Shown here one piece after another: positions 9,041-63,716 of a stretch of 64,000 bases of DNA. The translations under genes and the position numbers were made by a program. The first letter of the stretch is position 1. Every line of letters begins with the position of its first letter. Source of the stretch: Octopus vulgaris (Eukaryota); NCBI GenBank assembly GCA_951406725.2, contig OX597814.1, positions 67,828,001 through 67,892,000 on the forward strand. The letters run 5' to 3'. The notes under the pieces were generated by a model. That model was given only the letters and a program-made list of their open reading frames with translations, made no database searches and was not told the origin of the DNA.

Positions 9041-9041
9041 G

Positions 9042-9129: not shown

Positions 9130-11957
<2,828 letters not shown>

Positions 11958-11974
11958 GGCGGTGAGCTTCTCAG

Positions 11975-14095: not shown

Positions 14096-14103
14096 TATTA
14101 TTG

Positions 14104-14198
<95 letters not shown>

Positions 14199-14201
<3 letters not shown>

Positions 14202-30385: not shown

Positions 30386-30389
30386 TATT

Positions 30390-30478
<89 letters not shown>

Positions 30479-30488
30479 TATTATTATT

Positions 30489-31722
30489 CAGTAGTTTTAT
30501 TTTTATTTTTATAGCGTGCTTTCACTTCACTACCGAGCGCAGCTCTGTGTGCCTTGGGTATGTGCTGTGATTTGTTGTGATGCTCTGATGGTTATTGTAT
30601 GGAAAGTGTTCTGCGTAGGATGTGTGCAGTGCCTAGTAGTGCAATTTTCTGTATGTTATATGTGTTTGTAAGTCCTGGTGTTTTTGTTATGTATTTGTCT
30701 GAATATTTTTTTATCATGCCTAATGCACCTACTATGATAGGAATTGTTTCTGTTTTCAGATTCCACATTCTAGTTACCTCTATTTCCAGGTCTTTGTATT
30801 TTGAGAGTTTCTCCATTTCTTTTAGAGACACGTTGTCATCTGCCGGTACTGATACATCAATTAGAAAGCATTCTTTTTCTTCATGGTCTCTGACGACTAT
30901 ATCTGGTCTGTTGGCCTTAATTTCTCTATCTGTGTGTATCGGCATATCCCAGAGTATGGTTGCTTTCTCGTTTTCTGTGACCTTTTCTGGTGTGTGCCTA
31001 TACCATCTTTTTTCTGTTGTTATTCCATAATGTTGGCATAGCTTCCAATGTATGTAAGTTCCAACTCTGTCATGTCTGTGAATATATTCCTTGTTAGCCA
31101 GGACTGGGCAGCTAGAGATAATATGATTTATTGTTTCTTGTCCATCTCCACATATTCTGCAGTTACTTGTAATATTTCTTTTCATTACATGTTTTTGGTA
31201 ATTTCTGGTGGGGAGGCTTTGGTCTTGTGCTGCAATTAAAAATCCCTCTGTTTCTGCTTTGAGTCCTGAGCTTCTCAACCATTGCTGGGATCTTTCTTTG
31301 TCTATTTCTTTTGCGTTTAGTTTAGTCCAGTATTTACCATGAAGGGGCTTTTCTTGCCATCGTTTTATCATGGTTCGTTGCTGTTCTATTTTTAGTTTGG
31401 ATTTCATTTTTTTTATAGCTTTTGTTGTTTCTTCATCTTCTTCTTCATGTTTATTAGGTGGTATGATTTCTTGTTTGTATTTGTCAGCTTCCTTAAATAC
31501 TGAGAACAGTTTTTTGTTTTGCTCGTGTTTTGCCGCTATCTGGATCAGTTTTCCTTCCTTCTGAAGTAGATATTTTTGCAGTCCTATGGTGGTTATTTTA
31601 TAGTAGTTTTCCAGCTGTATAAGGCCTCTACCACCTTCTATACGTTGTATATATAGTCTTTCTATGTCAGATTTTGGGTGATGCATCCTAGATCCTGTCA
31701 TTATTTTTCTTGTTTTCCTGTC

Positions 31723-31724
<2 letters not shown>
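30489..31724 (-). mobile_element. R4/Dong family A, young 5'-truncated copy with an uninterrupted RT-thumb/CCHC/RLE frame
   Basis: Element-derived part of ORF 30592-31833: GGRGL, CRICGDGQETINHIISSC, RHD, RPDIV..IDV..EKLSKY; (TTA)n on both sides. Confidence 0.95.
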
Positions 31725-31785
<61 letters not shown>

Positions 31786-31786
<1 letters not shown>

Positions 31787-33830: not shown

Positions 33831-34082
<252 letters not shown>

Positions 34083-34418
34083 GTGTGGAGGCGCATGGCT
34101 CAGTGGTTAGAGCGTCGAGCTTACGATCGTGAGGTTGTGAGCTCGAATCCCGGACCGGGCTGCGTGTTGTGTTCTTGAGCAAGGCACTTTATTTCACGTT
34201 GCTCCAGTTCACTCAGCTGTAGAAATGAGTTGCGACGTCACTGGTGCCAAGCTGTATCGACCTTTGTCTTTCCCTTGGATAACACTGGTAGCGTGGAGAG
34301 GGGAGGCTGGTATGCATGGGCGACTGCTGGTCTTCCATAAACAACCGTGCCCGGACTTGTGTCTAGGAGGGTAACCTTCTAGGTGCAATCCCATGGTCAT
34401 TCATGACCGAAGGGGGTC

Positions 34419-35960: not shown

Positions 35961-35968
35961 TAGAAGAT

Positions 35969-37453
35969 GTGAAAAGAGCGAAGGAATTGTTAAGGAAGGA
36001 TGGCAATGGTATCTTCCTCAATACTCCACAAGAGGTGATTGAAAGCACCAAAAAGCAAACAATAATTTACAAAGTTTTCGACAGAAAACTAAAAAGAATA
36101 ACAAATGCCACACCCCAACAGTTGGAGATAGCTCTAAAGCCCATTTGGGCCCAAAAGAGCTACGTAACCAAGGGGAAGCGTTTTGGAACCGTGGAGGTTC
36201 GCTTCCCAACAGAGGAGCTTGCAAGGGCGAACGCCATTTCGCCCTTGCAAACTGAGAATTTGTTACTAGTTCCGACCCACCTCGGGCGAAGAGTAACAAA
36301 AATAAAAATCGACCTCGCACCCCCTGAGCTAGATATGTCATGGCTGGTGGCAGCTGTCCTCTATGATATAGAGGACACTACCACCATTCTATATGTCAGG
36401 AGAGTGAGGGCGAAAAACTGGTTGGGGATGGGAGTGCTGCTTCTTGCGCAAATTCAGCAAGAGAATATAAGTAAAGTCCCTGATTTCGTAAGTTTGCCGG
36501 ACGGCACCAGGCTAAACGTTGCTGTGGAGGGGCGAAAGCCAAAATGTTTCCTCTGCAGCAGCGAAAGCCACTTAAAGAGGGAATGTCCCATTCACAAAAA
36601 GAGGATGGAGGCTTTCAGCAAGAGGCAGCAGCAGCAACAACAACAACAACAACACAAGCAACAACAACAGAAACAACAAAAACAACAAGAAACACCAAAG
36701 GCTGCCACACCACCAACACCATCACCAACACCAGCACCAAGACGAACAACACCACCTCCAACAACAACAACCACCACCAAACCAACACCGACACCAGTAC
36801 CTCGAAGGTCGACAGCAGCGACATCAACAGTAACAGGAGCAGCGGCACCACCGATACCGGCGGAACCAAAAACTTTTCGTCCTGCTACTGAAGCAGACCC
36901 CTCAACCATTCCTTTGCCGGATGAAGAGATCTCGGATTGTGCGAGCTCTGATTCCAACAAAGGAGAATGGAACATAGTGCCTCCAAAAAAGAAAAGGAGG
37001 AAAAAACAAAAAGATTTACAGGGGAAGCACGAACAAATAGTACTTCCCAACATCAACAACATCAACAACAACACACACTCACAACAACAAACAACAACAA
37101 CAACAACACTTTCGACACCACTACTGCCACTACCACAGACACAAACAAACACAGACACAATTACAGACACGATTACAGCAGTGAATACAAGAAACCAGGA
37201 ACTGGTTGAGTATTTGAAAAACAAAACAAGCACAAACATTACAGATTTCATAATACCTACACACAACACACCACCAGCACACATTCTCACAATAAAAATA
37301 AACAAAACAGTTTACAACGAAATAAAACAAATATTCCCTAACGATGTGGGATCGTTAGGGAAAAGTTTCTCGCAGAAACTTTACAAAAATATTATTGAAG
37401 CACCCGTGCAAAAGCACAAGGGAGCCACCCCCACCACCAACAACAGTAAGTAG
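35969..37453 (+). CDS. ORF1 gag-like protein (CX2CX4HX4C knuckle, Q/T/P-rich linker), N-truncated
   Basis: CFLCSSESHLKREC; basic KKKRRKK motif. Confidence 0.88.
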   Translation: MKRAKELLRKDGNGIFLNTPQEVIESTKKQTIIYKVFDRKLKRITNATPQQLEIALKPIWAQKSYVTKGKRFGTVEVRFPTEELARANAISPLQTENLLLVPTHLGRRVTKIKIDLAPPELDMSWLVAAVLYDIEDTTTILYVRRVRAKNWLGMGVLLLAQIQQENISKVPDFVSLPDGTRLNVAVEGRKPKCFLCSSESHLKRECPIHKKRMEAFSKRQQQQQQQQQHKQQQQKQQKQQETPKAATPPTPSPTPAPRRTTPPPTTTTTTKPTPTPVPRRSTAATSTVTGAAAPPIPAEPKTFRPATEADPSTIPLPDEEISDCASSDSNKGEWNIVPPKKKRRKKQKDLQGKHEQIVLPNINNINNNTHSQQQTTTTTTLSTPLLPLPQTQTNTDTITDTITAVNTRNQELVEYLKNKTSTNITDFIIPTHNTPPAHILTIKINKTVYNEIKQIFPNDVGSLGKSFSQKLYKNIIEAPVQKHKGATPTTNNSK

Positions 37454-37493
37454 AGCCTTTTTTCTCCTTTTTTTTCCCCCTAACTTTTGAAAC

Positions 37494-40400
37494 ATGGCAA
37501 ATCTTAGAATCGGTTGCTTGAATGTGAGAGGCCTCGGGTCACCTTGGAAACAGGGTCACCTGTTAAACGACCTGAGGTTTCATGATGTGGATGTAGCAGC
37601 CATCAGTGAAACCAGGCTCTCCGACCCGCAGGAACTCGCAGCCCTTTTCGGCGGATACGAGATATTTCTATCTCCGTGTCGGCCGGGAGCGGGCGGTGGT
37701 GGTACTGCGGTGTTGTTTCGGAAGGGCCTGGACCTGAAAATAAGGACAGTCTTCTTGGATCCGGAAGGTAAGTTGGTGGTCCTCGACGTGGACGGTAGTG
37801 ACGGCGGTGCTTTCAGACTGCTGGCTGCCTACGCTCCGACAGGAGCAGGGCAGTCGGATTATTTCAAACGTCTGGAAGTTTTCCTGGGAACGTCACGCAC
37901 TCTAGTACTAGTTGGGGATTGGAACGCTGTCTTAGACGAACGTTTCGATCGGGTGGGCAGGGGAGCGTCTGATAGGAGAGGGGAGGGTGCAAGAGCCTCG
38001 CCAACCTACTCGGCCGCTTTCAGCTGTCCGACAGGTTTCGACTAGACAACCCGAATGTGCCAATGTGGACTTGGACAAACCGCATCGGGTCGTCTAGATC
38101 GTACTTAGATAGAGTGTTTTGTAGGCCAGCGGATAAGGACAGCGTAGGGTGTCCACAATTCCACCTAGTCGAATATACGGACCACAAATTAGTGATCTGT
38201 ACGGTCGACTTAGATAGGCTACATAGACAGGGACCCGGCTACTGGAAGCTGAACGCGTCGTTAACGGCGTGCAAAGCTTACAGAGACCGGATTAGTTTAC
38301 TAGTTAAGCGGGCGCTCACGGGGGCAATCATCAACAACAACTGGTGGTTTGCCCTCAAGAGAGCAATTAGAGTAGAGTCGATTAGGTATAGTAAGACTCT
38401 AGCTATTGAACGTAGGAAGAGAGAGCGGGATTTAGTTAAGAAACTAGACGAGGCTCTTGACACTGGCATCGCGACCGACGTGTTGGCGACAAGGTTGGCC
38501 CTCGACCAACACTTCGACGCCAAACACGAAGGCTGCGTTGTCAGAGCTAAGGCACGTTCGCTAAGCGGGGAGGGGACTAGAGCCGCTCGATGGGCCCGCG
38601 TGGCGGAGGCGAAGCGAGGCAACAGAGCAACCATTCGGTCTTTGGTGGACCAGAACGGGCGCGAGGTTACCCAACCGAAGCAGATGTGTACGGTGCTTCA
38701 GCGGCACTTTGCTCAACTGTTTGGGACGAGCGGTGGAACGGACACCAACGGTACAGACTTCGGTGTGTACCTGGACGGCCTACCGCAACTCTCGGACAGC
38801 GAGGCAGAGTGCTGCGAAGGACCGATATCTGCCTGGGAAGTACAGGAAGCGATGAAGAGTTGCACGAGAGGTAGATCACCGGGTTTGGATGGTCTGCCCT
38901 ACGAGCTTTACTTTTCAATGCCAGACTTGTTTGCGGACCTGTTGGCAAACGTCTACTGCAACTGGCAGCAAAACGGGAGAATTCCTGCTTTTGTCTGTCG
39001 AGGGGTGGTGGCTTTGCTAAAGAAGGACCCAAACAAGGGGGACGTTATAGGGAATTTCCGGCCCATCACTCTGCTCAATGCAGAGTTGAAGAATTTGGCC
39101 AAGGTGCTAGCCAAGAGATTGGCGCTTGTCGTGGACAAGCTGGTCGGCGAGACGCAGACATGCGCCGTGCCGACCAGGTCGATACACGACAACCTCCATC
39201 TCATGCGCTACATCATAGAGAGGGTGGGTAACGACGCTGGCGCGGGTGGGGCTTTGATCAACTTGGATCAGAGTAAAGCCTTCGATAGGGTTGACCATCG
39301 GTACCTGGCAGCTGCCCTCAGGGCAGCCGGCTTCGGTCCAGTCTTCCGCGGGTGGATCGCTGCTTTATACAGCAACATCTGCTCAGTGATACGGGTGAAC
39401 GGTCACCTTTCGGAACCGTTCGACATCTCGCGTTCGGTCCGCCAAGGATGCCCTCTCTCCTCCCTCTTGTACATTTTGACTCTCGAGCCATTACTGCGCA
39501 AGTTGGAGGCTTTGAGGGGTATCCCGCGCGATCTAGGAGGCGGAAACAGCGTGTCTGCTTATGCCGACGACGTCACCGTGGTGGTGTCGAGCCACAGGCA
39601 CATTGGCCTGATTGGCGAGACGCTAAACCAGTACGAAGCGGTGACAGGGGCAAAGATTAACGCGGAAAAGTCTGTGGGCTTGCAACTGGGCACCTGGAGA
39701 GGCAAGCCCATGCCGTCCAACAGCGTCGTAGGGCGCTGGACAGACGGACCCGTTAAACTGCTCGGGGTCTGGTTCGGTCCGGACCTCCAGGTGGATAAGA
39801 ACTGGGAAGAGGTGACGAGCAGGGTGGCACGTCTCACCCAGAAATGGGCCGAGAGGAAGCTGTCCCTGAAAGGTCGAGCGGAGGTGGCGAATGCGTACAT
39901 CGCATCCGTTATCTATTACCGCTTGACCGTCGTCCCTTGTCCCGACCGCTGGTTGGCCAAGCTGGTACGTCTGCTCTTCGACTTTTTGTGGAAGGGTCAG
40001 GTGCCACTGGTCAGGCGATCCATCTGCTGTCAACGACCGCTGAACGGAGGCCTTGGAATGCCGTGGTTGCTGTTGCGCAGACATGCGCTCAGGCTGCGGC
40101 ATCTCAAGCGCTTCCTAGACGGTGAACAGGTGTGGTCGTCTTTCGTCAGACGCGATTTTCCGCAGCTCGTCTCTTTGACGGAACTGCAGACCTGGATCAA
40201 ACGTAGACCGAGAAAGGGCGCTTGGCACCTCGAGTGCCGTCAGGCCCTCTCCGCCCTCCGCCAGGCGGGCAATGCGGTCGGTTACAGCTCCACTCTAGCG
40301 TTCTATAGAGGGTTAGTGGAGGAAAAATGCGACGACGTTCTCGGGGAAACTCTAGGCGTTGAAGATGACGAACTGTGCGGTCTGTTCGGGAGGACTTTCG

Positions 40401-40927
40401 GGCCGGGGCCGATGGATAATTTCCAGAGGTCTCTCGCTTGGCAGTGCTACCGAGGGGCTCTGCCTGTTCGAGATAAACTCTACCGGCACGGAAGTGCCGT
40501 CAGCCGGGCCTGCCCGAGGTGTTGCCAGGACGACGAAACCGTCCTGCACGCACTCGTCCAGTGCCCGAGTATTGCTGAAATATGGGTTTATGTCGAACAG
40601 CTACTGTCACGTATAGGACGGATCCGACTATCGGCCGAATCCATAGTGAAGATTGCCCCGCCGACCTCCTTTAACAAGGAGGGCGAGGCCGTTTTCTTGT
40701 GCCTAGTGGCTGTGGCGAAAGAGGTCGTGTGGTGGACTCGTTTGAAAGGGCTAAAGACAGACACTTTCCTCTTTGGTCAAGGCCTCATCAACTTTTTCAA
40801 GTTTCACTTGAAAAGGAAGATGAGGTTAGAGAGGAAAGTGCTGTCCGATAGCAAGTTTTATGAAAGGTGGGTGAATTGTGCGAGACTGGCCAGTATAAAT
40901 GGACCAGTTCTCAGGTTTCGCCTGTGA
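37494..40927 (+). pseudogene. ORF2: APE endonuclease, RT and C-terminal Cys motif; one frameshift near 37980
   Basis: CLNVRG, ISET, GDWN, YLDR, TDH; FRPITLLN, LDQSKAFDRVDH, QGCPLS, YADD; CPRC..ETVLHAL..C. Confidence 0.93.
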
Positions 40928-41449
40928 TTTCAAAGAAAAAGGTAATGTAAAAGGAGAAGAAAGGGGACTCTCTACACCCCCTTTTTTTTTGACCAGGCTC
41001 CCGTTGGCTTTTGTAGGGTTTTTTCCACCAGGAACCTTTCGAGACGTCTCCCCCTTTTGGGAGTTTTTCATTGTTGAATTTTATAAGTTGTTATAAAGAT
41101 TTTTACTCGATGTTTTTAAAAAACGGCAAAACCCTTTGTAACCTTTCGTCCTGTCTTGTCCCTTTATGTAATCATGCGTGTCAGCCCTTGTGGCCAATAA
41201 AAAAGAATTGATTATTATTATTATTATTTCTTCCAACGCGGATGGACGTGTCTCCGGAAGCTCCGTGAGTTTTGTGCCAATTTCATTTGAAATTTGTTTG
41301 TGAGTTACAATATTTTTATATATTTGTGTGGCCAAGCCGACTAACTTTTTGCAGAGCTGGTTGGCTAGGCAAAATTTTACCCCATTGGGGGTAAAATTAC
41401 TGTTTATATTATTGACATTCACATTATTTTGCACACACACATTTCCAAA

Positions 41450-43318
41450 ATGGCGTTAAAAAGAGCTGCTGGCTCTTCCCTCCTTGCAACACCACCCCCT
41501 CCACAAGAAGAAAAAATTTCGTCAGCGGTTCCGAACCGCCCATTTCAAGCCGTAAAAGGCAAAGAAAACATTACAATGGAACGTGCTGAAAAGCAAAGCG
41601 TTCCAAATAAGAACAAAAAAGACGTCATTTTAGATTTCCCCCCTCTACCTTCAACTAATGTTATAGTACCGAAGGGGGAGGAAGGGAATGATATGAATAA
41701 GAGAGAAATAAACAAAGAAACAAAAATTGAAGAAAATTCCAAAGGTTTTGCTTCAGCTACGAAGCAAATTTCGGAAGAGATACAAGTTTCGATGGAGGAT
41801 ATTAAAATGGCAAAAGAATTGTTGAGAAAAGAGGGAAACAGTGTTTTCCTCAACACACCTCAACAACTCATACATGAGACCAACAAAAAAACAATTTTCT
41901 ATAAAGTTTTCGAAAAGAAAACTAAAAGACTGGTTAACGCCACACCCCAACAGTTAGAAATGGCTCTGAAGCCCATTTGGGGCCAAAAGAGCTATGTGAC
42001 AAGAGGGAAGCGATTTGGAACCGTGGAGGTTCGGTTCCCAACAGAGGAGCAAGCAAGGGCGCATGCCATTTCGCCCTTGCAAAATGAACATTTGTTCCTC
42101 GTTCCGATGTACCTCGGGCGTAAGGTCCAAAAAATAACAATAAATACAATACACCCCGAACTGAATATCTGATGGCTAGTGGCGGCTATCCTCTATGGCA
42201 TAGAGGACACTGCCACTATTCTAAATGTTCGGAGGGTAAGAGAAAAGAACTGGTCAGGTATGGGTATTGAACTGCTGGTACAGATCCAGCAGGAAAACAT
42301 CAATGCCATACCTGACTTTGTCATCTTACTAGATGGGACCAGGCTAAACGTTACTGTAGAGGGGCGAAAGCCAAAATGTTTCCTCTGCAGTAGCGAAAGC
42401 CACCTGAAGAGGGACTGCCCGATTCAAAAAAAGAGAATGGAGAAATACAGCAAGAGGCAGCAACAACAACAACAACAACAACAGAAACAACAGAAACAGC
42501 ACGAAACACCAAAGGCTGCCACACCACCAACACCATCACCAGCACCAAGACGAACAACACCACCTCCAACAACAACAACCACCAAACCAACACCAACAAC
42601 AGTACCTAGAAGGTCGACAGCAGCAAGAAGAGAAGGTGAGAGCTCACCAACGCGGGCACCATCAACAGCAACAGGAGCAGCGGCACCACCGATACCGGCG
42701 GAACCAACAACTTTTCGTCCTGCTGCTGAAGCAGACCCCTCATCTATTCCTTTGCCGGATGAAGAGTACTCGGATTGTGCGAGCTCTGATTCCAACAAAG
42801 GAGAATGGAGCACAGTGCCTCCAAAAAAGAAAAGGAGGAGAAAACAAAAAGACACACAGGGGGAGCACGAACAAATAGTGCTTCCCAACATCAACAACAG
42901 CAACAACAACAACACACACTCACAACAACAAACAACAACAACACTTTCGACACCACTACTGCCATTGCCACAGGCACAGGCACAAACCCACACAGACACA
43001 ATTACATCAATAAATACAAGAAACCAGGAACTGGTTGAGTATTTGAAAGAAAAAACAAGTACAAATATAACGGATTTCGTTATACCAACACAAAACACAC
43101 CACCAGCACACATTCTCACAATAAAAATAAACAAAACAACATACAACGAAATTAAACAAATATTCCCTAACGATGTGGGATCGTTAGGGAAAAGTTTCTC
43201 TAAGAAACTGTACAAAAATATTTTGGAAGCACCCGTGCAAAAGCACAAGGGAGCCACCCCACCACCAACAACAGTAGGTAGAGCCTTTTTCTTCTCCTTT
43301 TTTTCCCCCTACTTTTGA
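41450..43318 (+). pseudogene. ORF1 of copy 2, one in-frame TGA at 42170
   Basis: ORFs 41429-42172 and 42179-43318 share a frame; CFLCSSESHLKRDC. Confidence 0.88.
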
Positions 43319-43321
43319 AGC

Positions 43322-46300
43322 ATGGCAAATCTTAGAATCGGTTGCTTGAATGTGAGAGGCGTCGGGTCACCTTGGAAACAGGGTCACCTGTTAAACGACC
43401 TGAGGTTTCATGATGTGGATGTAGCAGCCATCAGTGAAACCAGGCTCTCCGACCCGCAAGAACTCGCAGCCCTTTTCGGCGGATACGAGATATTTCTATC
43501 TCCGTGTCGGCCGGGAGCGGGCGGTGGTGGTACTGCGGTGTTGTTTCGGAAGGGCCTGGACTTGAAAATAAGGACAGTCTTCTTGGATCCGGAAGGTAAG
43601 TTGGTGGTCCTCGACGTGGACGGTAGTGACGGCGGTGCTTTCAGACTGGTGGCTGCCTACGCTCCGACAGGAGCAGGGCAGTCGGATTATTTCAAACGTC
43701 TGGAAATTTTCCTGGGAACGTCACGCACTCTAGTACTAGTTGGGGATTGGAACGCTGTCTTAGACGAACGTTTCGATCGGGTGGGCAGGGGAGCGTCTGA
43801 AAGGAAAGGGGGAGGGTGCAAGAGCCTCGCCAACCTACTCGGCCGCTTTCAGCTGTCCGACAGGTTTCGACTAGACAACCCGAATGTGCCAATGTGGACT
43901 TGGACCAATCGCATCGGGTCGTCTAGATCGTACTTAGATAGAGTGTTTTGTAGGCCAGCGGATAAGGACAGCGTAGGGTGTCCACAATTCCACCTAGTCG
44001 AATATACGGACCACAAATTAGTGATCTGTACGGTCGACTTAGATAGGCTACATAGACAGGGACCCGGTTACTGGAAGCTGAACGCGTCGTTAACGACGTG
44101 CAAAGCTTACAGAGACCGGATTAGTTTACTAGTTAAGCGGGCGCTCACGGGGGCAATCATCAACAACAACTGGTGGTTTGCCCTCAAGAGAGCAATTAGA
44201 GTAGAGTCAATTAGGTATAGTAAGACTCTAGCTATTGAACGTAGGAAGAGAGAGCGGGATTTAGTTAAGAAACTAGACGAGGCTCTTGAGACTGGCATCG
44301 CGACCGACGTGTTGGCGGCAAGGTTGGCCCTCGACCAACACTTCGACGCCAAACACGTTGGATACTTTGTCAGAGCTAAGGCACGTTCGCTAAGCGGGGA
44401 GGGGACTAGAGCCGCTCGGTGGGCCCGCGTGGCGGAGGCGAAACGAGGCAACAAAGCAACCATTCGGTCTTTGGTGGACCAGAACGGGCGCGAGGTTACC
44501 AAACCGAAGCAGATGTGTACGGTGCTTCAGCGGCACTTTGCTCAACTGTTTGGGACGAACGATGGAACGGACAACGGTGCAGACTTCGGTGTGTACCTGG
44601 ACGGCCTACTGCAACTCTCGGACAGCGAGGCAGAGTGCTGCGAAGGACCGACATCTGCCTGGGAAGTGGGAGAAGCGATGAAGAGTTGCACGAGAGGTAG
44701 ATCACCGGGTTTGGATGGTCTGCCCTACGAGCTTTACTTTTCAATGCCAGACTTGTTTGCGGGCCTGTTGGCAAACGTCTACTGCAACTGGCAGCAAAAC
44801 GGGAGAATTCCTGCTTTTGTCTGTCGAGGGGTGGTGGCTTTGCTGAAGAAGGACCCAAACAAGGGGGACGTTATAGGGAATTTCCGGCCCATCACTCTGC
44901 TCAATGCAGAGTTGAAGATTTTGGCCAAGGTGCTAGCCAAGAGATTGGCGCTTGTCGTGGACAAGCTGGTCGGCGAGACGCAGACATGCGCCGTGCCGAC
45001 CAGGTCGATACACGACAACCTCCATCTCATGCGCTACATCATAGAGAGGGTGGGTAACGACGCTGGCGCGTGTGGGGCTTTGATCAACTTGGATCAGAGT
45101 AAAGCCTTCGATAGGGTCGACCATCGGTACCTGACAGCTGTCCTCAAGGCAGCCGGCTTCGGTCCATTTTCCGCGGGTGGATAGCTGCTTTATACAGCAA
45201 CATCTGCTCGGTGATACGGGTGAACGGTCACCTTTAGGAACCGTTCGGCATCTCACGTTCGGTCCGCCAAGGATGCCCTCTCTACTCCCTCTTGTACATT
45301 TTGACTCTCGAGCCTTTACTGCGCAAGTTGGAGGCTTTGAGGGGTATCCCGCGCGATCTAGGAGGCGGAAACAGCGTGTCTGCCTATGCCGACGACGTCA
45401 CCGTGGTGGTGTCGAGCCACAGGCACATTGGCCTGATTTGCGAGACACTAAACGAGTACGAAGCGGTGACAGGGGCAAAGATTAATGCGGAAAAGTCTGT
45501 GGGCTTGCAACTGGGCACCTGGAGAGGCAAGCCCATGCCGTCCAACAGCGTCGTAGGGCGCTGGACAGACGGACCCATTAAACTGCTCGGGGTCTGGTTC
45601 GGTCCGGACCTCCAGGTGAATAAGAAATGGGAAGAGGTGACGAGCAGGGTGGCACGTCTCACCCAGAAATGGGCCGAGAGGAAGCTGTCCCTGAAAGGTC
45701 GAGCGGAGGTGGCGAATGCGTACATCGCATCCGTCATCTATTACCGCTTGACCGTCGTCTCTTGTCCCGACCGCTGGTTGGCCAAGCTGGTACGTCTGCT
45801 CTTCGACTTTTTGTGGAAGGGTCAGGTGCCACTGGTCAGGCGATCCATCTGCTGTCAACGACCGCTGAACGGAGGCCTTGGAATGCCGTGGTTGCTGTTG
45901 CGCAGACATGCGCTCAGGCTGCGGCATCTCAAGCGCTTCCTAGACGGTGAACAGGTGTGGTCGTCTTTTGTCAGACGCGATTTTCCGCAGCTCGTCTCTT
46001 TGACGGAGCTGCAGACCTGGATCAAACGTAGACCGAGAAAGGGCGCTTGGCACCTCGAGTGCCGTCAAGCTCTCTCCGCACTCCGCCAGGCGGGCAATGC
46101 GATCGGTTACAGCTCCACTCTAGCGTTCTATAGAGGGTTAGTGGAGGAAAAATGCGACGACGTTCTCGGGGAAACTCTAGGCGTTGAAGATGACGAACTG
46201 AGCGGTCTGTTCGGAAGGACTTTTCGCCGGGGCCGATGTATAATTTCCAGAGGCCGCTCGCCTGGCAGTGCTACCGAGGGGCTCTGCCTGTTCGAGATAA

Positions 46301-46751
46301 ACTTTACCGGCACGGAATTGCCGTCAGCCGGGCCTGCCCGAGGTGTTGCCAGGACGACGAAACCGTTCTGCACGCACTCGTCCAGTGCCCGACTATTGCT
46401 GAAATATGGGTTTATGTCGAACAGCTACTGTCACGTGTAGGACGGATCCGACTATCAGCCGAATCCATAGTGAAGATTACCCCGCCGACCTCCTTTAACA
46501 AAGAGGGCGAGGCCGTTTTCTTGTGCCTAGTGGCTGTGGCGAAAGAAGTTCTGTGGTGCACTCGTTTGAAAGGGCTAAAGTCAGACACTTTCCTCTTTGG
46601 TCAAGGCCTCATCAACTTTTTCAAGTTTCACTTGAAAAGGAAGATGAGGTTAGAGAGGAAAGTGCTGTCCGATAGCAAGTTTTATGAAAGGTGGGTGAAT
46701 TGTGCGAGACTGGCCAGTATAAATGGACCAGTTCTCAGGTTTCGCCTGTGA
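43322..46751 (+). pseudogene. ORF2 of copy 2 (APE+RT), frameshifts near 45170 and 46225
   Basis: ORFs 43322-45184, 45292-46440 and 46236-46751 are near-identical to copy 1 ORF2. Confidence 0.92.
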
Positions 46752-47024
46752 TTTGAAAAAGGTAATGTAAAAGGAGAAAAAAGGGACTCTCTACACCCCT
46801 TTTTTGACCAGGCTCCCGTTGGCTTTTGTAGGGTTTTTTCCACCAGGAACCTTTCGAAACGTCTCCCCCTTTTAGGAGTTTTTCATTGTTTTATAATTAT
46901 TGTTATACAGTTTTTTTACTCGATGTTTTTCAAAAACGGACAAAACCCTTTGTAACCTTTCGTCCTGTCTTGTCCCTTCATGTTTCAAATCATGCGTGTT
47001 AGCCCTTGTGGCCAATAAAAAAGA

Positions 47025-47094
<70 letters not shown>

Positions 47095-48719: not shown

Positions 48720-49148
48720 GTAGGCGTAGTTGTGTGGTAAGAAGTTTGCTTCCTGACCACATGGTTTCATGTTCAGTTCCACTGCGTGGCACCTTGGGCA
48801 AGTATCTTCTACTATGGTCTCGAGCCGGCCAAAGCCTTGTGAGTGGATTTGGTAGACAGAAACTGGAAAAAAGCTTGTTATATATATCTTTGTGTGTATG
48901 TGTGTGTAATATGTATATATAGATATATGTATATGTGTGTGTGTATTTTTTGTCCCCCACCACCATTTGACAACCGGTGCTGGCGTGTTTACGTCCCCGT
49001 AATTTAGCGGTTCGGCCTAAGAGAGAATTAAAATAAGTACTAAGCTTTAAAATAATAAGTCCTGAGGTCGACTTGTTCAGCTAAAACTCTTCAAGACGAT
49101 GCCCCAGTATGGCCGCAGTCGAATGACTGAAACAAGCAAAAGATAAAC
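48720..49148 (+). mobile_element. tRNA-derived CORE-like SINE with internal (TA)/(TG) repeats
   Basis: tgtgtggtaag..gttcagttccactgcgtggcaccttgggcaagt; homologues at 56413, 63410 and an inverted fragment at about 54677. Confidence 0.8.
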
Positions 49149-50899: not shown

Positions 50900-52966
50900 T
50901 GGGCAGGATTAGGTCAACTGTTCGACGTGTAATTGCCCGACGGACAAATGACCGTTGGGCAACTGCTCGGCGGACAACTGCCCGACGGACAGCTGCTTGA
51001 TAGATAACTGCCCAATAGATATCTGCCCGACAGATACTTTCACTTTATGTCATTCATTTCACTTTATCATTTGGGCGAATCTTCCTGTACTCAAAAATTG
51101 TATTTTTCTTCAGTTTGCTGAAGTAAAGGACTACTAGATGGCAAAAGGCCAAGCAACTCTGTTAGCAGTGAAGCTCGTGAAACTTTTTCATCTTAATTTG
51201 CATACAATTGTTAGTAACCATGCATTTCATTAAAACTCAACGTGGAGGTTTGAAGCTCTGCTATAATGGTTACGTCTACGTTAAGAACAAGGACTTGTCA
51301 TCAGGAAATATGTTCTACGTGAACGTCACCGACATGACAACTGCAAGGTCAATATTATAATGTGTGGAGAAGAAATAATTAGCCAGACACACGTGCACAC
51401 TCACACTGCAGATATTCTTCGTCAAGATCTCCTATCTGTACCCGAGGAACTGGAGAAAGCTATTGTAATAGCTTTCTCCAGCAAACTTTACAACAAATTA
51501 TAACACAAACTTTACAGAATGTTTCGAAAAAAGTTTCTACTCAGCTACCGGCCATGAGCACTATTAGGTGTTCAATCAGAAGATATAAACAAGTTATATA
51601 TGCTCCACATTCCATACCGAGAAAATTGCACGGCATGATCATTCCAGGTGAATACAAAAAATATGCAATGAGGAACATTTCTTACTTTACGATAGTGAAT
51701 CCAGTGAGAACCGTGTACTTTTGTTTTCTACTGAGAAAAATATGCGACTCTTGAAATTTTCAAGTGATTGATTTTGCGATGGTACATTCAAAGTAGTGCC
51801 AGAACCGTTTTACCATCTCTGCTCTATTCACTGTTTAATCTCTAATACAACGATTCCTTGGGTCTTTACATTATTGCCAAATAAACGTCAAACCACCCAC
51901 GAAGAACTTTTCAGCCAACTTTAGGCTATAAAATCCAGGATCAATCCAGCTAGTAGTCTGATCGATTATGAACAAGCTGCCAAGAATGCAATTGCCGAAA
52001 TTTTTCCAAATGCAATTATCAAAAGGTGTTTTTTCACCTCTCTCAAACAGTTTATCAGAAGGTACAATCAGAGGAATTGCAATCGAGACATCAGAGCGAT
52101 GCTGATCTTGCTCTAAGCATTCACATGATACCAGCTTTGGCTTTTGTTCCAGCAGACAATGTTGAAACAACATTTGAGCAATTACAAGAAAATTTGTGTC
52201 ATGAAGCAGATCCAATCATTGATTACTTTGAAGATGCTTGTATCGGTAGAATACGACGGCATAACAGACTTTCTTATTTGTATGTGGAACATGTATGACC
52301 GCGTATGGGATGGCATAACCATTTACAGGCGAATATAACGCCAAGTCATCCAAATAGCTGGCATTTTCTTCAGTTATTGAAGACGGAACACGCACTTAAC
52401 GACACGGTCATCAACCAAATGCTAACAGGACATCAGTTTTCACTCCAAAAGAAAAAAATATCAAGATTTAAGGAAAAGAATTTCATATATTGTGGAGGAT
52501 TATGAAAATCGAGAAGTGATTGGATTTTTTGAGAGGTATAGCTTTTAGTTATAGTTTTTTTTTTTACTATTTTCCAAATTACATTATTGTTCGTGATACT
52601 GATAAATTATCTGTAAATAATATTGCTTTTATAAAATTTAATGTCTTTTTTTTTTTTGTTAAAATTTTACCTCTGCTTCCACAAATAAAACATAAATTCT
52701 ATTTTTCGTACTTTTATTTTACCTTTGAAAGAAATAATTTTTTTAATGTTACTCTATGACAACTAAAAGGGTTTAATATAATTTTAGTTTAGTTAATTTT
52801 AGTATTTTTATTTTTTAGTTTCAATTTACTTTAAAATTAACGGGCAGTTGTATTTGTCGGGCATTTGTCCATCTAGCAGTTGACTGTTGAGCAATTGCCG
52901 TCGGGCACTTGGCTGTCGGGCACTTGTCCGTCGGTCTTCTGTCAGTCGGGCACTTGTCTGGATACC
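50900..52966 (+). mobile_element. Mutator-like (MULE/FLYWCH, Phantom-type) DNA transposon, degenerate
   Basis: Terminal arrays of about 15-bp ggacaactgcccgac repeats in inverted orientation; CDGTFKVVPEPFY at about 51775; FFHLSQ..MIPALAFVP (52026-52298); GWHN..HPNSW (52305-52505). Confidence 0.82.
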
Positions 52967-52987
52967 ATTTATATATATATATATACA

Positions 52988-54665
52988 CGTGCGCGGACGA
53001 TTGCCACTGAGAAAATTTCCACAGGGATTATTGCCACTCGGAACATTGACCATGTGAGAGAATTACCACTGGGAAAATTTCCCATATGTGAACATTGTCA
53101 CTGGGAACATTACTCAGATGTGAGCATGGAATAAACATTTATTATATGTAGATCCCTACATCATATGTGCGTATATACGCAAAAATACACCCAACAACCC
53201 AGCCAATAGCAATTTACTAGTAAACTTAAGCTATGACATGCTTGCTAATTCGAAATAGTTTTGTTTTGCTTTAAAACTGTTCAAGTTAAGATCCATAATG
53301 GCACATGGGATAAAAAGTGAACGTGGAAGTGATATGCTTGTTGTTGAATTGCAATACATGTATCATGGCAAAAATATGAGCGGCACAATTATTTACTGGG
53401 AATGTTCTCAAAGAAAGCAAAAGAAATGCAAAGCAAGATTACACACGAAGGCATTAATAGAGAAAATTGAAATTTTAAAGTTTGTTAATGATTATTGTTA
53501 CTCTGCGACTAAGGATGATGTTGGTTATAAACAACAATACCAGACCGATAATGCATTCTCTCGAAGTAATTTTCCGCACTTGCGTTGTGCTAGCCGAATA
53601 TGTTATTGAAGTTTTTGAAGAGCTATCAGAGGATGAAGGTATATCATCGGAATTTATCCTTTACTTCGAAATGACTTACATAAGGATATTAAGAGGAAGA
53701 AGAAACAACCGATGCTGAGATCAACCTATGTTCTCACTTGTTCTTTGGAATGTTTACAATCGAACTGAACTAGCTTCACCTCGTCCAAATAACAGTGTTG
53801 AAGCATTTCAGAATGTGTTAAATAAATCTGTGAGTAATTCCCACCCTAACCTTTGGAAACTAATCCTAGCATTGAAACAGGAGGAAAACTTGGCTAAAAC
53901 TAAGCGTGTTCAATTTAAACGAGGAGACCCTTACCCGAAAAATAAAAAAAATATAACGACGTTAATATACGAATGAAGCGTAATGTTGGCATTTATGGGA
54001 ACACCAATCATAAATTTTTGTATTTTAAGTCTATCGCATATAATATGCACATATTATAATTAAACATTTAAATATCTACTGCTTTTTAAATAATCATTAA
54101 TTGTATTTGTAATGAAAAAAATTCTAAATAATTTTAAATAATGCTTTACTTGCCTTTTTAAATAAGTTAAATTTTCCAAAACACTTCTCAAATTCAGTTT
54201 CAGTCATAAGATTATAAGGTGTTTTGAAAAGAAAACCTGGAACTTATATTTAAATTTTAAAACCATGTCGATGAATACCATATAATGTGTACACTGTTCT
54301 TTTGTATAAAATAGTTTGGAATTATTTTACTTTCACACCCTTCTAAAGTTCTAAATAGAATAAATGTTTATTGTATGTATTTTAGTGTTATGAACGAATC
54401 CAACCTTCAAACCCCTCACAAATATACTATACATATAATAAAATTTAATAAAATTTATAATTGTAGTCGAGTGTGAAAGTAAAATTTTACTGAATATTTC
54501 CCAGTGGCAATGCTCCCATCTGGGCAGTGTTCTCAGTGAGAATATTCACACATGGGCAATGTTCCGAGTGGCAGTGTTCCCAGTGGCAATTCTCCTATAT
54601 GGGCTAATGTTTCGAGCGGCAATTATCCCAGTGGAAATTTTTCCAATGAAAATTATCTTAGAGCC
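52988..54665 (+). mobile_element. Second MULE/FLYWCH element, internally deleted
   Basis: Inverted terminal arrays of attgccactgggaa-type repeats; FLYWCH-like IYWECSQRKQKKCKARLHT; LWNVYNRT..PRPNNSVEAF..HPNLWKLI. Confidence 0.82.
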
Positions 54666-55415
54666 ATATTTATACGACAGGCTTCTTTCAGTTTCCGCCT
54701 ACCAAATCCACTTACAAGGCTTTGGTAGAACCAGGAACCATGTAGTTGGGAAGCAAATTTCTTACTACACAGAAATCCCTGGCCTACAAGTCAGTTTTCA
54801 TATCTTCTTGTTATTGTGCAGTGTGCTTACAAAAGCACCTTCTCGTTTCCTCTCCATCTGGATGTAAAATAAATTGCAGAGTTAATCGATGTAAGAAATG
54901 AGATCATCGAGGGATTGGTAAATGTTTCGCTAACTTTGTCTGTTGGTCTGATATCAATTCAGGTGCTTTATTGTAATCTGTGAAGGACTGTTTTTTTTTT
55001 ATGTGGTTCGACTTAGCTATAAATGAAAGATTTCAGATATTTCCTGTATTTCATGTTGCGATATACAAAATACCCCAGCTTAAAGCTATAGAAGTTGGAT
55101 CCTTGAATTAACATCTTGATTTTAACATTTCACATGACTTGTATATCAAAAGCAGCATGCTATTAGAAATGACAGCTGGTTAATTCCAGTACAACAGGCA
55201 CACGTCTAAGTAAATCAATAGCTTAGAATAATTTCAATATGCTCACATAGACTTTTTTCATGGCTAGTTAGAAGACAGGACGTCGATGAGTGCTGAGAGG
55301 TGAAACGAAGAAGTTATCGCCAGACAGGATACCCGTATCGAATACTTGCAGGGAAACGAACATCTCTGCTATTGATACACGAAAATAAAATGTTATACGA
55401 AATATAACGTGTTGG

Positions 55416-55488: not shown

Positions 55489-55690
55489 GTTGTTAAAATA
55501 ATTTATGTCATTATTTGTATATTGCAATATGATTCAATATTTAGACTACAAACTGACTTCGAAAAACTTACAATTATTCAGAATAATGATTCATCAATTT
55601 AGAAACGAAGTTTTCTTGAAGGATCTGCTAACCTATAATATTTGATTCTTAATTACAAAAATATAAGAATATACATACATACATACATAC

Positions 55691-56363
55691 ATGATGATGG
55701 CTGCCCCCTCGTTATCGAGTATGGCCATTGCACGAAGCTCAACTGTTATTGGTGCTGTGATCGAATGTGACTTTTATTTGCTTTTTAAGGCTACAGCCAG
55801 CCATTCAGTTGAGACTCACAGCACTATCAACAATCATGAACAATGCTATCGTGCAATGCCTGTGCAAGAAGATTTTTTTTAAAGTGAGGAAAGGCTGTGC
55901 ACTGAGTCAATCCCACTCACTAAGCAACAGCAGCCATAATCCGAAAAGAAGAACAAGTCAACCTCATCGGTAACCACTGAGCCGCAGGTTTTATGTCGGA
56001 GTTATCCCAGTTACCTGAGTTACCTTCTCCTAGAAAGATGCCCTAACAAAAGCTAGGAGTTCTTCACTCCCAATGGTTTAACCGCGCGATCGAGTATTAA
56101 ATCCGATTATTTTTATGTCCACGCGCATGATACAGCCTTAAGCCATAAGAAAAAAAAAATCACACTTTTATTGGATGGCCGTTGACTCTCAAGAGTTCTT
56201 CCTCCCTTTGATGGGTTTTGTTTTTCATCCCGCAGTGTGTCCAATAAATACTCTCCTCACCAAGTAAGCTTGATGGTGTTGCCGGTTTAGTCGCCGACGG
56301 CCCGACCATGCAACAGGTTGTACTGGGTTACATGTTACCAGTAGCACTGGAAAGTGACCTGAC
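55691..56363 (-). mobile_element. Short non-coding RTE-like non-autonomous retroposon
   Basis: Flanked by (CATA)n on both sides; 5' HDV-like fold; 3' stem-loop ctcg-ataa-cgag, ggggcagcc, then (CAT)3 tail. Confidence 0.55.
56282..56359 (-). ncRNA. Candidate HDV-like ribozyme (degenerate copy)
   Basis: P1 GGTCAC/ATGGTC, J1/2 hairpin ccagt-gct-actgg, P2 CCAGT/ACCGG, P3 (a)CA-ACCTGT-TG(c), GG, P4 GCC-GTC-GGC, J4/2 GACTAA; several mismatches. Confidence 0.5.
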
Positions 56364-56412
56364 ATACATACATACATACATACATACATACATACATACA
56401 TACATACATACG

Positions 56413-56555
56413 AGGTAAATAGCTTGCTTACCAACCACATGGTTCTGGGTTGAGTCCCACTGCGTGGCACCTTGGGTAAGTGTCTTCTACTATAGCCTCG
56501 GGCCGACCAAAACCTTGAGTGGATTTGGTAGCCAGAAACTGAAAGAAGCCCGTCG
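56413..56555 (+). mobile_element. CORE-like SINE 5' part
   Basis: Homologous to 48730 and 63410. Confidence 0.8.
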
Positions 56556-56898
56556 TATATATATATATATAGTCAAAGAGAGTTAGCGGTTGTGAATCCA
56601 ACCAACTAAGGGACAGTATCTATCCAAATATACTGCTGGTAATATACCCAATTATTAATGCACAAGTGCTGGTTATTGCGTGGCAAATTACACTATTGAG
56701 CGTGATAAATGTGCGAGCCTTAATTTATACGGCAAGAAGAAAATGGAAGGGGATCCAGAGATAGTATGCTTCAACTTTTAGGCATAATATTATGTCTATT
56801 TATTTTAAGCAATTATGAGAATATATATACATATGCAAAGATTGTGATTTCCATACATAAATAAATATCAGTAATTTCTATAATAGAAAAAGAATAGT

Positions 56899-57277: not shown

Positions 57278-57340
<63 letters not shown>

Positions 57341-57352
57341 CACATATACATG

Positions 57353-57427
<75 letters not shown>

Positions 57428-57449
57428 ATGTTACATTACTCGGTAGTCA

Positions 57450-57512
57450 AGATAAAACTCTGAGTTTCAGATGCCGAAGTGGAAATCCACAACACCATCT
57501 CTTCGGTTATCT
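57450..57512 (-). ncRNA. Hammerhead-like motif with variant core (CCGAAGA)
   Basis: agataa-CCGAAGA-gatg...catc-t-GAAAC-tc-a-ga-GTT-ttatct; 6-bp stem I. Confidence 0.55.
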
Positions 57513-57706
57513 GGCTATTTGAAAACGTTATGAAAAAATACCGTTAAAAATGAAGGGAAATTACTCTGTTATAACTCTGCTTTGCCTGCGTACTTATACA
57601 TCGCTCGCATTTTTCGTCATAAAAATTATATAAAAATACATAAAAATATATAAAAATATATAAAAATATATAAAATCTTCTTGGGACATAACACCGAAAG
57701 CATATT

Positions 57707-58897
57707 CTATCCGTTTTCTTTAGGGGACCAAAAACGTAACAGAAATTTAGTCACATGTGGGCATGATCCGAAAAGCTCTGTCCTTGTATTTAGACATGTG
57801 GTAGGGTCTAAGCTGCTTTTCCAGATAAGCCATCTCTCCATGTCGCATAAACCGCACCTTCCGCTGCCGTTAGTATAGGGCTTACATCTGGCCAAAATCT
57901 TCCATTGTATGTTATAATCCAAACCTTTATCTCTTAAAGACCAAATATGATTGGATAATTGTGTCGCTTTTCTTTTGTTCCAGTGCCTAAAGCTCAAAGT
58001 GTGGTTATTGAACCTGGCCTTGAAATTACCCTCTGTCAGGCCCACGTATTTCTTCGTCGAAACGGTGTCTTTAGTGGTTATAGAGTTTACGGTAGCTTCA
58101 TATATGATGGTCTTGGACATGCAAGCTCCATTTAGCGGGCACAATTCTTTATTCCTGCATGAACAGCTGTTTTCTTCTTGTATTTTTTGTATGTTATGAT
58201 TGATTATGTTTTTAAAATTGGTAGTTGAACTAAAACTAATTTTTAAATTGTGTCTATTGAAGAGTTTCCTATAAGCATGGTTAACTGGAAAATGTCTATC
58301 TATCAGTGCTAGGAAATATTTACCTATATTGAAGGCCACCTCGGGTGAGTAAGGGGGCGTAAACCAGATGACCTTCCTATTTCTATTATTCCTTTTCCTT
58401 ATTGTTGGGCTGGTGATAGGTGTATATTTTATTTTTTCGCTAAAACCACTATCTTTTAAAGCTTTATTATAAACTGGGGCAACGCTATTGAAGATGTCCT
58501 CATTAAATGAGAGGCTAGAAATCCTCTTACTAATATTTTTAACTAAATTTTTGAATACTATAGGGGGATGGCATGAACCTACATTAATATAACTTAGTCT
58601 ATCATTGGGCTTCCTATAAGGCTTATAAATATTATTATTAAGATCTAAGGAAACGTCTAAGAAATTGACAACCGTCAGGTTAGTGTCTATAGTTATACTA
58701 AGTCCGAAGTGTTTCATTAACTGGATAATATCCTTCCTAAAACGATCTTGTGCTGGTCTATTTGTATTAGCTGTTAAGGCGAGGGCATCATCTTTGTAGA
58801 TGGCGAAATGTACGTTAGGGAATGTCTTACCGAAGGTATCTAGGAGAAAGAGTCCAATTAGATCACAGATGCCTGCCCCATCATATGAACCCATGCT
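57707..58897 (-). CDS. Penelope RT (C-terminal part) plus GIY-YIG endonuclease, 5'-truncated open frame
   Basis: MGSYDGA, YKDD, VNFLDV, YRKP, CPLNGAC..IIYEA..YVGLTEGNFKARFNNH..SF, CGLCDMER, CPH. Confidence 0.92.
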   Translation of the reverse strand, partial: SMGSYDGAGICDLIGLFLLDTFGKTFPNVHFAIYKDDALALTANTNRPAQDRFRKDIIQLMKHFGLSITIDTNLTVVNFLDVSLDLNNNIYKPYRKPNDRLSYINVGSCHPPIVFKNLVKNISKRISSLSFNEDIFNSVAPVYNKALKDSGFSEKIKYTPITSPTIRKRNNRNRKVIWFTPPYSPEVAFNIGKYFLALIDRHFPVNHAYRKLFNRHNLKISFSSTTNFKNIINHNIQKIQEENSCSCRNKELCPLNGACMSKTIIYEATVNSITTKDTVSTKKYVGLTEGNFKARFNNHTLSFRHWNKRKATQLSNHIWSLRDKGLDYNIQWKILARCKPYTNGSGRCGLCDMERWLIWKSSLDPTTCLNTRTELFGSCPHVTKFLLRFWSPKENG

Positions 58898-59338
58898 CAA
58901 TCATATTTGGTCTTTAAGAGATAAAGGTTTGGATTATAACATACAATGGAAGATTTTGGCCAGATGTAAGCCCTATACTAACGGCAGCGGAAGGTGCGGT
59001 TTATGCGACATGGAGAGATGGCTTATCTGGAAAAGCAGCTTAGACCCTACCACATGTCTAAATACAAGGACAGAGCTTTTCGGATCATGCCCACATGTGA
59101 CTAAATTTCTGTTACGTTTTTGGTCCCCTAAAGAAAACGGATAGAACATGCTTTCTGTGTTATGTCCCAAGAAGATTTTATATATTTTTATATATTTTTA
59201 TATATTTTTATGTATTTTTATATACTTTTTATGACGAAAAATGCGAGCGATGTATAAGTACGCAGGCAAAGCAGAGTTATAACAGAGTAATTTCCCTTCA
59301 TTTTTAACGGTATTTTTTCATAACGTTTTCAAATAGCC

Positions 59339-59401
59339 AGATAACCGAAGAGATGGTGTTGTGGATTTCCACTTCGGCATCTGAAACTCAGAGTTTTATC
59401 T
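59339..59401 (+). ncRNA. Inverted copy of the variant hammerhead-like motif
   Basis: Reverse complement of 57450-57512. Confidence 0.55.
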
Positions 59402-59497
59402 TGACTACCGAGTAATGTAACATATTGTATAGATAAATTTCCTCTATTTACATAATATTGAGGTCTCTTTCTTTCTTTTGTTATCTTACCGTTTTAT

Positions 59498-59536
<39 letters not shown>

Positions 59537-59583
59537 ATTGTATCGCATTTGACTTTGTTTATATATATATATATATATATATA

Positions 59584-60000
59584 TACTAATAAAAAGGGTT
59601 CAGCAAAGAATTGCTTCATCGAAGCTCAGAAATAGCAGCCAAAAATCTTAGCTATTTCTTCTACTTTAAAAAGGGTCTTCAGGAGAAACCAAAATACTTG
59701 AAGGTTATTCACACAGGCAGAGAGTAAAGCAACGAAAATCAATCAATATCTAGTCGTCCATGAACGCGCGTTTCTGAAGTATTTTGGTTTCTCTGGAAGA
59801 CTCTTTTTAAAGTAGAAGAAATAGCTAAGATTTTTGGCTGCTATTTTTGAGCTTCGGTGTGTGGTGAAGCAATTCTTTGCTGAACCCTTTTTATTAGTAT
59901 TACTTAAGTTTACCGTGAAACGGTCCTGTTTTCATACCGAATTCTACTTGGTGAAATTATTGATTACTTTTTAATTAATTAATTTTACCCTTTGTTATTA
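59584..60000. mobile_element. Miniature foldback PLE unit (family of 3349-3872)
   Basis: Arms about 59584-59699 and 59777-59900; the loop holds only the 3' half of a hammerhead (GAAACGCGCGTT on the minus strand); about 100-nt right-arm extension. Confidence 0.7.
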
Positions 60001-63409: not shown

Positions 63410-63716
63410 TGGTAAGTAGCTTGTTTACCAACCACATGGTTCCGGGTTCAGTCCCACTGCGTCGCACCTTGGGCAAGTGTCTTCTACTAAAGCCTCGGGC
63501 CGACCAAAGCTTTGTAAATGGATTTGGTAGACGGAAACTGAAAGAAGCCCGTCGTATATATGTATATATATGTATATGTGTGTGTGCGTGTATGTTTGTG
63601 TTTGTCCCCCTAGCATTGCTTGACAACCGATGCTGGTGTGTTTATGTCCCCGTCACTTAGCGGTTCGGCAAAAGTGACCGATAGAATAAGTACTGGGCTT
63701 ACAAAGAATAAGTCCT
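63410..63716 (+). mobile_element. CORE-like SINE
   Basis: Homologous to 48720-49148. Confidence 0.82.

Follow-up and report, generated by a model that had tools for sequence, protein, structure and literature searches.

A high-copy, non-coding RTE derivative in Octopus vulgaris with a probably degenerate HDV-like head

At the locus considered here lies a 673-bp element (55691-56363 of the window, i.e., the whole 64-kb stretch of Octopus vulgaris DNA analysed), which is located on the minus strand, reads from 56363 to 55691 and is flanked by CATA repeat tracts, much as the preliminary description had it for an element of roughly 670 bp. The 3' end likewise agrees with that description, being composed of a small stem-loop, the stability of which is unremarkable by itself (z -0.58), followed by a short (CAT)n tail. 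The four CATA units adjoining this tail likely constitute one half of a target-site duplication. The main features are as follows, those given without a strand being strandless:

55691..56363, minus strand: whole element, a single member of a non-coding retroposon family of high copy number, with 24 substitutions in the contig majority relative to this copy over 655 unmasked bases
55675..55690: 3' flank, four CATA-repeat units
56362..56411: 5' flank, 12.5 CATA-repeat units
55691..55699, minus strand: (CAT)3 tail
55697..55727, minus strand: 3'-terminal stem-loop, core CTCG-4 nt-CGAG at 55719-55708
55726..55858: 10-bp inverted repeat (55726-35 and 55849-58) enclosing a variable loop
55983..56064, minus strand: conserved domain of RTE 5'-UTRs, corresponding to the RTE-derived half of the Ceph domain and interrupted by a 17-nt insertion
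56212..56277, minus strand: run of 5'-UTR hairpins (56275-58, 56252-36 and 56232-12), the pairs of which are restored by the family majority
56290..56301, minus strand: 4-bp tetraloop hairpin competing with the proposed ribozyme fold, complete in the majority, where U 56300 pairs with A 56291, and taking in C 56290

Contigs from public sequencing runs were aligned to 55560-56385 at 80% likeness, and differences were listed from a 15% share upward; masking left out 55663-55698 and 56355-56385, the latter holding the 5' strand of P1 in the fold called register A below. In such data, subfamilies below a 15% share are invisible and rare variants are dropped by the contigs, and summed depth was not used as copy number. 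The element was matched by 9,419 contigs in run X3, 3,602 in X8 and 685 in X19, three runs carrying three different organism codes, and depth was zero over the left flank (55560-55671) and high from 55700 to about 56350. The data comprise four of 24 listed runs, the fourth being X21, a raw-read run from which 0 reads matched; X19 is possibly an RNA run of contigs. With depth so confined to the element, these counts indicate a high-copy family, with some relatives at 81-85% identity. Single-copy status, which the preliminary description had named as speaking against its proposal, holds for the window only, thousands of contigs being found in the public runs. In many family contigs, the loop of the 10-bp inverted repeat (55740-55846) is exchanged for about 13 other letters. 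Exact 20-22-nt probes taken from the element retrieved 0 loci in metagenome, viral and genome contigs. Neither the element nor a ribozyme on it was found described in the literature searched, to which Repbase and Dfam were external; their entries, or the list of RTE ribozymes of Ruminski (2011), may already include the family.

The element is very likely a non-autonomous RTE derivative, for which the RTE 5'-UTR domain, the RTE-like 3' stem-loop and the (CAT)3 tail together provide good support. The domain in question is located midway in RTE 5'-UTRs and also makes up half of the Ceph domain (Kojima, 2018, PMC5786205); here, it stands 305 nt from the head of the element. A 12-mer of this domain occurs 72 times in the supplement of the same paper (PMC5786205), and a gapped motif joining the 12-mer to an upstream block matches the window solely at 56023-56056, with 0 of 100 shuffles matching. 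A longer ungapped 19-mer gave no match because the element has its 17-nt insertion there, an insertion that looks like a local duplication. A profile built from metagenome motif matches (nhmmer) hits the window at 56064-55983 only (E=4.4e-6), a value that is partly circular because the motif was built partly from the element itself; the block downstream of the motif aligns independently of it and forms the non-circular part of this support. As for the 3' end, the core of the stem-loop looks, by eye, like the terminus of IdioSINE2, a squid element (PMC5786205), and the same core is present 200-233 nt downstream of the motif, just before a repeat tail, in 10 of the 121 motif matches listed, all short RTE-domain elements.

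The description of the element as non-coding, multi-copy, RTE-derived and devoid of a Pol III head is thus borne out: no coding remnant (best E 0.051; no ORF) and no tRNA was found in it, and none of the 23 B-box matches of the window falls inside 55691-56363. A tRNA-derived SINE, including a Ceph-SINE, was rejected as its identity, given the absence of both a tRNA-like head and a Pol III B-box. The further claim of a bipartite RTE derivative stands as regards the RTE domain and non-autonomy; the bipartite layout is likely, and neither the parent RTE nor the deletion junction was found. In this respect, no match between an autonomous RTE 3' end and that of the element was obtained, no close RTE-like match to the element exists within the window, and the motif of another RTE-type SINE had no exact match there. 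A link to the restriction-like-endonuclease LINEs in the (TTA)n tracts of the window was discarded, no sequence being shared.

With the gapped RTE motif, at least 120 metagenome loci (at least 121 motif matches) were fetched, and 0 matches in viral contigs. The head of the element resembles none of the 120 listed metagenome loci, blastn matching the RTE domain only, in three of the 120. Among the matches listed, 26 have more than 600 bases downstream, and five loci (L028, L029, L059, L062 and L063) lead into endonuclease-type ORFs, e.g., in L029 a 1,043-aa ORF with Exo_endo_phos and RVT_1 that ends in a (GAT)n tail, an arrangement which, judged from its sequence, would correspond to the RTE layout. 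L063 (fold at 2658-2810) and L007 carry HDV folds with a single deviation and a long J1/2, 212-213 nt upstream of the motif; these near-canonical folds are 5'-terminal in an RTE and directly follow a microsatellite. Overall, the 121 motif matches listed comprise 2 with a canonical HDV head, 22 with a different structured head, 47 with a short head lacking any such structure and 50 with other or truncated ends. A ribozyme can be present at RTE 5' ends that have the conserved domain, and is not needed for short derivatives to spread.

The different structured head is conserved some 130-270 nt upstream of the motif (L002, L011, L012, L019, L022, L028, L029, L035, L039, L040, L044, L052, L055, L059, L062, L077, L078, L081, L100, L115 and L120), and it contains several inner hairpins and a long-range helix, both sides of which have changed in L055 and L100 relative to the rest; no HDV fit was found in it, and no Rfam match in the five scanned. 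The 47 short elements (e.g., L004, L013, L082, L102 and L111) are about 280 bp long and start directly at the RTE domain, 30 of them adjoining a (GT)n tract, and no tRNA-like or ribozyme head was seen in them.

In the head of the element itself, an HDV-like fold can be drawn in two registers, namely (i) register A, as first proposed, and (ii) register B, all parts being on the minus strand:

56282..56359: head, register A, descriptor fit with five deviations, G1 at 56359
56359-54/56309-04: P1 of register A, 5 pairs (two G.U) plus a top mismatch
56350-38: hairpin in J1/2 of register A
56326-22/56286-82: P2 of register A, one mismatch
56321-19/56312-10: P3 of register A, one mismatch
56318-13: L3 of register A, 6 nt, with A first where a pyrimidine is usual
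56303-02: GG of register A, then P4 (56301-56293)
56290: putative catalytic C, common to registers A and B
56282..56347: head, register B, G1 at 56347, helices free of mismatches in this copy and in the majority; fits the topology with a long L3 allowed
56347-44/56311-08: P1 of register B, 4 bp, opening with G.U
56341-37/56286-82: P2 of register B, intact, as is P3 (56336-34/56314-12)
L3 of register B: 19 nt, holding a 4-bp hairpin (56332-29/56322-19), the usual conserved bases absent
56307-06: GG of register B, with the same C 56290 as in register A

Compared with known HDV-like ribozymes, the GG after P1 and the C of a C-N-R-A junction before P2 are present and unchanged in the family majority, although C 56290 is paired in the preferred hairpin of that majority. 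An L3 of about 7 nt with a pyrimidine first, a C for P1.1 and the conserved G is found in neither register. Where P1 usually has 6-7 bp and opens with G at the cut site, register A offers 5 pairs and the top mismatch (5' strand masked) and register B only 4 bp; as for P2 (usually 5 bp or more) and the 3-bp P3 on which it stacks, each of these helices has one mismatch in register A and both are intact in register B. The five deviations of register A are thus the P1 top mismatch together with two G.U pairs, the P2 mismatch, the P3 mismatch, the 6-nt L3 and the A at its first position.

The nested order of the preliminary description can therefore be drawn exactly as stated, with G1 at 56359, but with these five deviations, and the fit exceeds chance only modestly (about 2%) and solely through its position. 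With a descriptor ignoring the first L3 base, 5 of 2,000 dinucleotide shuffles match register A and 36 equally good fits occur on the two strands of the 64-kb window. Once that base is counted, a match turns up somewhere in 112 of 3,000 shuffles, and in 59 of 3,000 it has G1 within 8 nt of the start, the corresponding figures for real 99-nt windows with an equal fit being 60 and 22 of 2,558; as such, the descriptor search recovers the proposed fold but also matches shuffled sequence near the 5' end. When the descriptor is loosened, the minus strand of the element itself gives 13 fits that equal or surpass register A, four of them with fewer deviations. In short, the fit is suggestive by position, not by quality. 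An Rfam search of the element returned no ribozyme at E up to 10, a blank that carries no weight because Rfam also misses the near-canonical folds of L063 and L007. Plain folding of the head is no better than that of shuffles (z 0.06 to 0.48 and -0.34). Hammerhead, twister and pistol ribozymes were also considered and set aside, their core motifs being absent on both strands.

The departures had been ascribed to about four lesions of this copy, which a family consensus was expected to repair in P1, P2, P3 and L3. Over 56278-56354, where depth is among the highest, the only difference listed is at 56300 and there is no indel; P2, P3, L3 and the 3' strand of P1 show no difference or indel at a share of 15% or more in runs X3, X8 and X19. 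Since 56300 is the only core difference, these parts are not repaired in the dominant subfamily, and their deviations are probably family-wide and not lesions of one copy, the 5' strand of P1 being masked. Contrary to the expectation, the sole core change weakens P4, where a C-G pair becomes U.G, and completes the competing hairpin at 56290-56301, the pair probability of which rises from 0.05 to 0.54-0.63 with the majority letter while that of P4 falls from 0.23 to 0.00. Just downstream, the majority does restore the neighbouring hairpins, which serve as a positive control within the consensus test. With majority letters, 56190-56359 folds at -57.1 instead of -39.6 kcal/mol, a stability reached by 0 of 300 controls with random substitutions; of the other 9 differences in 56190-56299, 6 lie in pairs to which the majority fold gives a probability of 0.57-1.00. 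In a consensus drawn from the loose ends of 54 contigs (agreement 0.59), the first downstream hairpin has changed on both sides of its base, as judged by eye. No such gain from the majority letters is seen in 55975-56190, where 119 of 300 controls do equally well, or in 55691-55975. Pseudoknots do not enter these energies, and for L063 and L007, the positive controls, the minimum-energy fold likewise departs from the HDV fold.

Concerning the 5' ends of other copies, 12 of the 24 listed pieces (out of 13,806) run on for at least 7 letters past the 5' end of their alignment, which falls at 56348 (6 pieces), 56344 (3), 56341 (1) or the mask (2). The last depth bin is at 10-11% of the preceding one, where 39% would be expected if all 11 unmasked bases were covered. 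Taken together, the listed ends and the drop in depth indicate that many long relatives lose similarity before the proposed 5' strand of P1 in register A. A subfamily difference at 56349-50 would give the same pattern of ends. With the deviations kept, the competing hairpin favoured and ten of the 12 long pieces losing similarity at 56341-56348, a 5' end made by self-cleavage at 56359, as initially envisaged, finds no support so far.

Cleavage in register A, modelled as an atypical but active HDV-like ribozyme that would cut 5' of 56359 and free the element from read-through transcripts, is judged unlikely. The order of parts, the GG after P1 and the J4/2 motif do fit, G1 lies only 2-4 nt inside the element boundary, the C.A mismatch at the top of P1 occurs in L063 as well, a structured J1/2 speeds such ribozymes (PMC4908430), and two of the listed contigs extend as far as the mask (56354) and continue for exactly 7 letters. 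Against this stand not only the five deviations, 0 of the four testable ones being restored by the majority, and the ends of the ten long pieces, but also a P2 duplex of only -0.7 kcal/mol, a majority change that favours burying C 56290 and the 2-4 bases separating the flank repeat from G1. Precedents from R2, where one exists for each deviation, soften this picture in part: roughly one R2 element in four is reported to have a P1-top mismatch and one in three a P2 mismatch, and the Nasonia R2 ribozyme is functional although its P1 has 4 nt, its P3 a mismatch and its L3 a different spacing; cleavage can nevertheless be abolished by a P1 mismatch or when the L3 G is lost (PMC3774820). By analogy, each deviation alone would be survivable; the same does not follow for all five together. 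R2 tolerance of mismatches, the U.G that still pairs in P4 and the masking of 56355-56363 nonetheless leave room for activity.

In its boldest form, the case for a working enzyme shifts to register B, where a variant of the HDV-like fold, its P1 limited to 4 bp and its L3 holding a hairpin, would cut at 56348/56347, this copy and some others keeping an uncut leader of about 16 nt. It is the only mismatch-free nested double-pseudoknot topology in the head, in the copy as in the majority, and it has a G.U at the cut site; half of the 12 long pieces end at 56348 and a further three at 56344, and depth falls in the last bin far below that expected at full coverage. Mismatch-free topologies also arise in 36 of 400 shuffles, though, L3 is without C at positions 2-3 and without the penultimate G, the 2-nt J1/2 is near the lower limit (PMC4908430), the pieces stop at 56348, one base beyond the predicted start, and their ends come from only 24 of 13,806 pieces, with masking depressing depth at the edge; furthermore, among the matches listed, 112 regions upstream of RTE-domain loci hold no convincing long-L3 fold and one chance-like match. 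It is improbable that a non-canonical HDV-like ribozyme, most boldly in register B, works at the head of the family, fixing where thousands of copies begin and escaping both Rfam and standard descriptors. A stronger contender, if still a minority view, holds that the head was never a ribozyme but an ordinary string of hairpins in an RTE 5'-UTR (a promoter or protein-binding leader) with the HDV order arising by chance. In the majority, the four-hairpin fold reaches -31.8 kcal/mol and the HDV fold, in its nested part, -11.7 kcal/mol, both energies omitting pseudoknot terms; the HDV fit at the 2% chance level and the 13 looser fits on the same strand are reasons why the head may lack ribozyme ancestry, and different structured heads or short heads are commoner than canonical HDV heads among the 121 motif matches listed, which derive from few host genomes and are in many cases 5'-truncated. 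Conversely, the position of the fit is the only one at which such ribozymes would be expected, and HDV ancestry is made plausible by the folds of L063 and L007 upstream of the same RTE domain. On balance, descent of the head from an HDV-like fold is somewhat favoured.

The reading retained, held with moderate confidence, is that of a high-copy non-coding RTE retroposon, likely an internal deletion copied in trans by RTE protein, with a head that is probably a degenerate HDV-like fold cutting poorly or not at all. It builds on the multi-copy family, the sharp 3' boundary, the lack of an ORF and of a B-box, and the RTE domain at its distance from the head. Transcription would be by RNA polymerase II, either from the RTE 5'-UTR or by read-through; the RTE protein would recognise the 3' stem-loop and prime reverse transcription at the CATA microsatellite, duplicating about four units; and the head would descend from the ribozyme of a parent RTE, the expanded family keeping a structured leader rather than an efficient enzyme. 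In a study of R2 templates, the fold itself, apart from cutting, aids insertion (PMC11331408), which by analogy might explain why a head that does not cut would be kept.

Ribozyme-headed, internally deleted LINE derivatives are already known, namely R2 SIDEs, NARTc and SIDERs. With bipartite non-autonomous RTEs (RTE-N2_Lch, RTESINE1/2, WALLSI3 and Bov-A) and the RTE half of Ceph-SINEs (Kojima, 2018, PMC5786205), the element shares an RTE domain midway in the 5' part, a short, putatively RTE-type 3' end, a microsatellite tail and the lack of an ORF and of a small-RNA head, but it is longer (673 bp), has the inverted repeat with a variable loop near its 3' end, has no identified parent and, unlike complete Ceph-SINEs, bears no tRNA head (PMC5786205). 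R2 SIDEs (Eickbush and Eickbush, 2012, PMC3414825; PMC3774820) are comparable as internally deleted LINE derivatives with a 5' ribozyme module and a 3' end read by the parent protein, whereas their ribozymes are well formed and rDNA-specific, in contrast to a fold with five deviations and a microsatellite target. NARTc, RIME and SIDER, with their Pr77 head, are also non-autonomous with a short conserved head, some Pr77-headed elements carrying active HDV-like ribozymes and others structurally disrupted, inactive ones; these belong to the Ingi/L1Tc clade of trypanosomatids, in which promoter activity of the head was demonstrated (PMC4035085). HDV-like ribozymes of RTEs, e.g., drz-Agam-2-1 (PMC4908430; Ruminski, 2011, via PMC5786205 and PMC6765202), are similarly 5'-terminal in the RTE 5'-UTR with a structured J1/2 and a C-U-A-A junction, the latter as in L063 and L007; their 6-7-bp P1, long P2, intact P3 and 7-nt L3 differ from the element head (PMC4908430). 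Kojima ties HDV-like ribozymes to bipartite RTE, Ingi and R2 elements (PMC5786205), mollusc SINEs with LINE heads are described (PMC4758252), and RTE-BovB is expanded in octopuses (PMC8967140; further background in PMC10879173 and PMC6765202). As described here, the element adds one more non-autonomous RTE derivative to those known and is unremarkable in that respect. Were the head to cleave, the HDV descriptor would be widened by a family-wide fold that departs from it in five places or that carries a hairpin in L3, and the family would provide a high-copy test of Kojima's suggestion that ribozyme-bearing LINE clades spawn bipartite elements.

The window holds several other repeats. Back to back with the element, across the CATA tract, is a 5'-truncated SINE (56412-56571; related sequences at 48735-49063, 54666-54726 and 63410-63716), which we take to be an octopus tRNA-type SINE. 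Nested LINEs with a reverse transcriptase and a C-terminal restriction-like endonuclease, presumably of the R4/Dong-type clade, pile up at 8481-18470 and 30380-34106, each in a (TTA)n, (TTC)n or (TCA)n tract, a placement that suggests R4/Dong-type microsatellite targeting. Two tandem two-ORF LINEs (35963-41228 and 41795-47046), 92% alike over 5.3 kb, have long open endonuclease-RT frames. A pair of 594-bp repeats (4319-4912 and 6454-7047) is 99.8% alike, the second overlapping a transposase-like frame at 6859-7560. Penelope-like RT/GIY-YIG fragments were recognised by eye at 2653-3219 and 57707-58900, with duplicated flanks, 57309-57953 being inverted relative to 58898-59585. Finally, arrays of diverged 15-bp units are located at 50915-51036, 52855-53127 and 54498-54641, the last two in inverted orientation.
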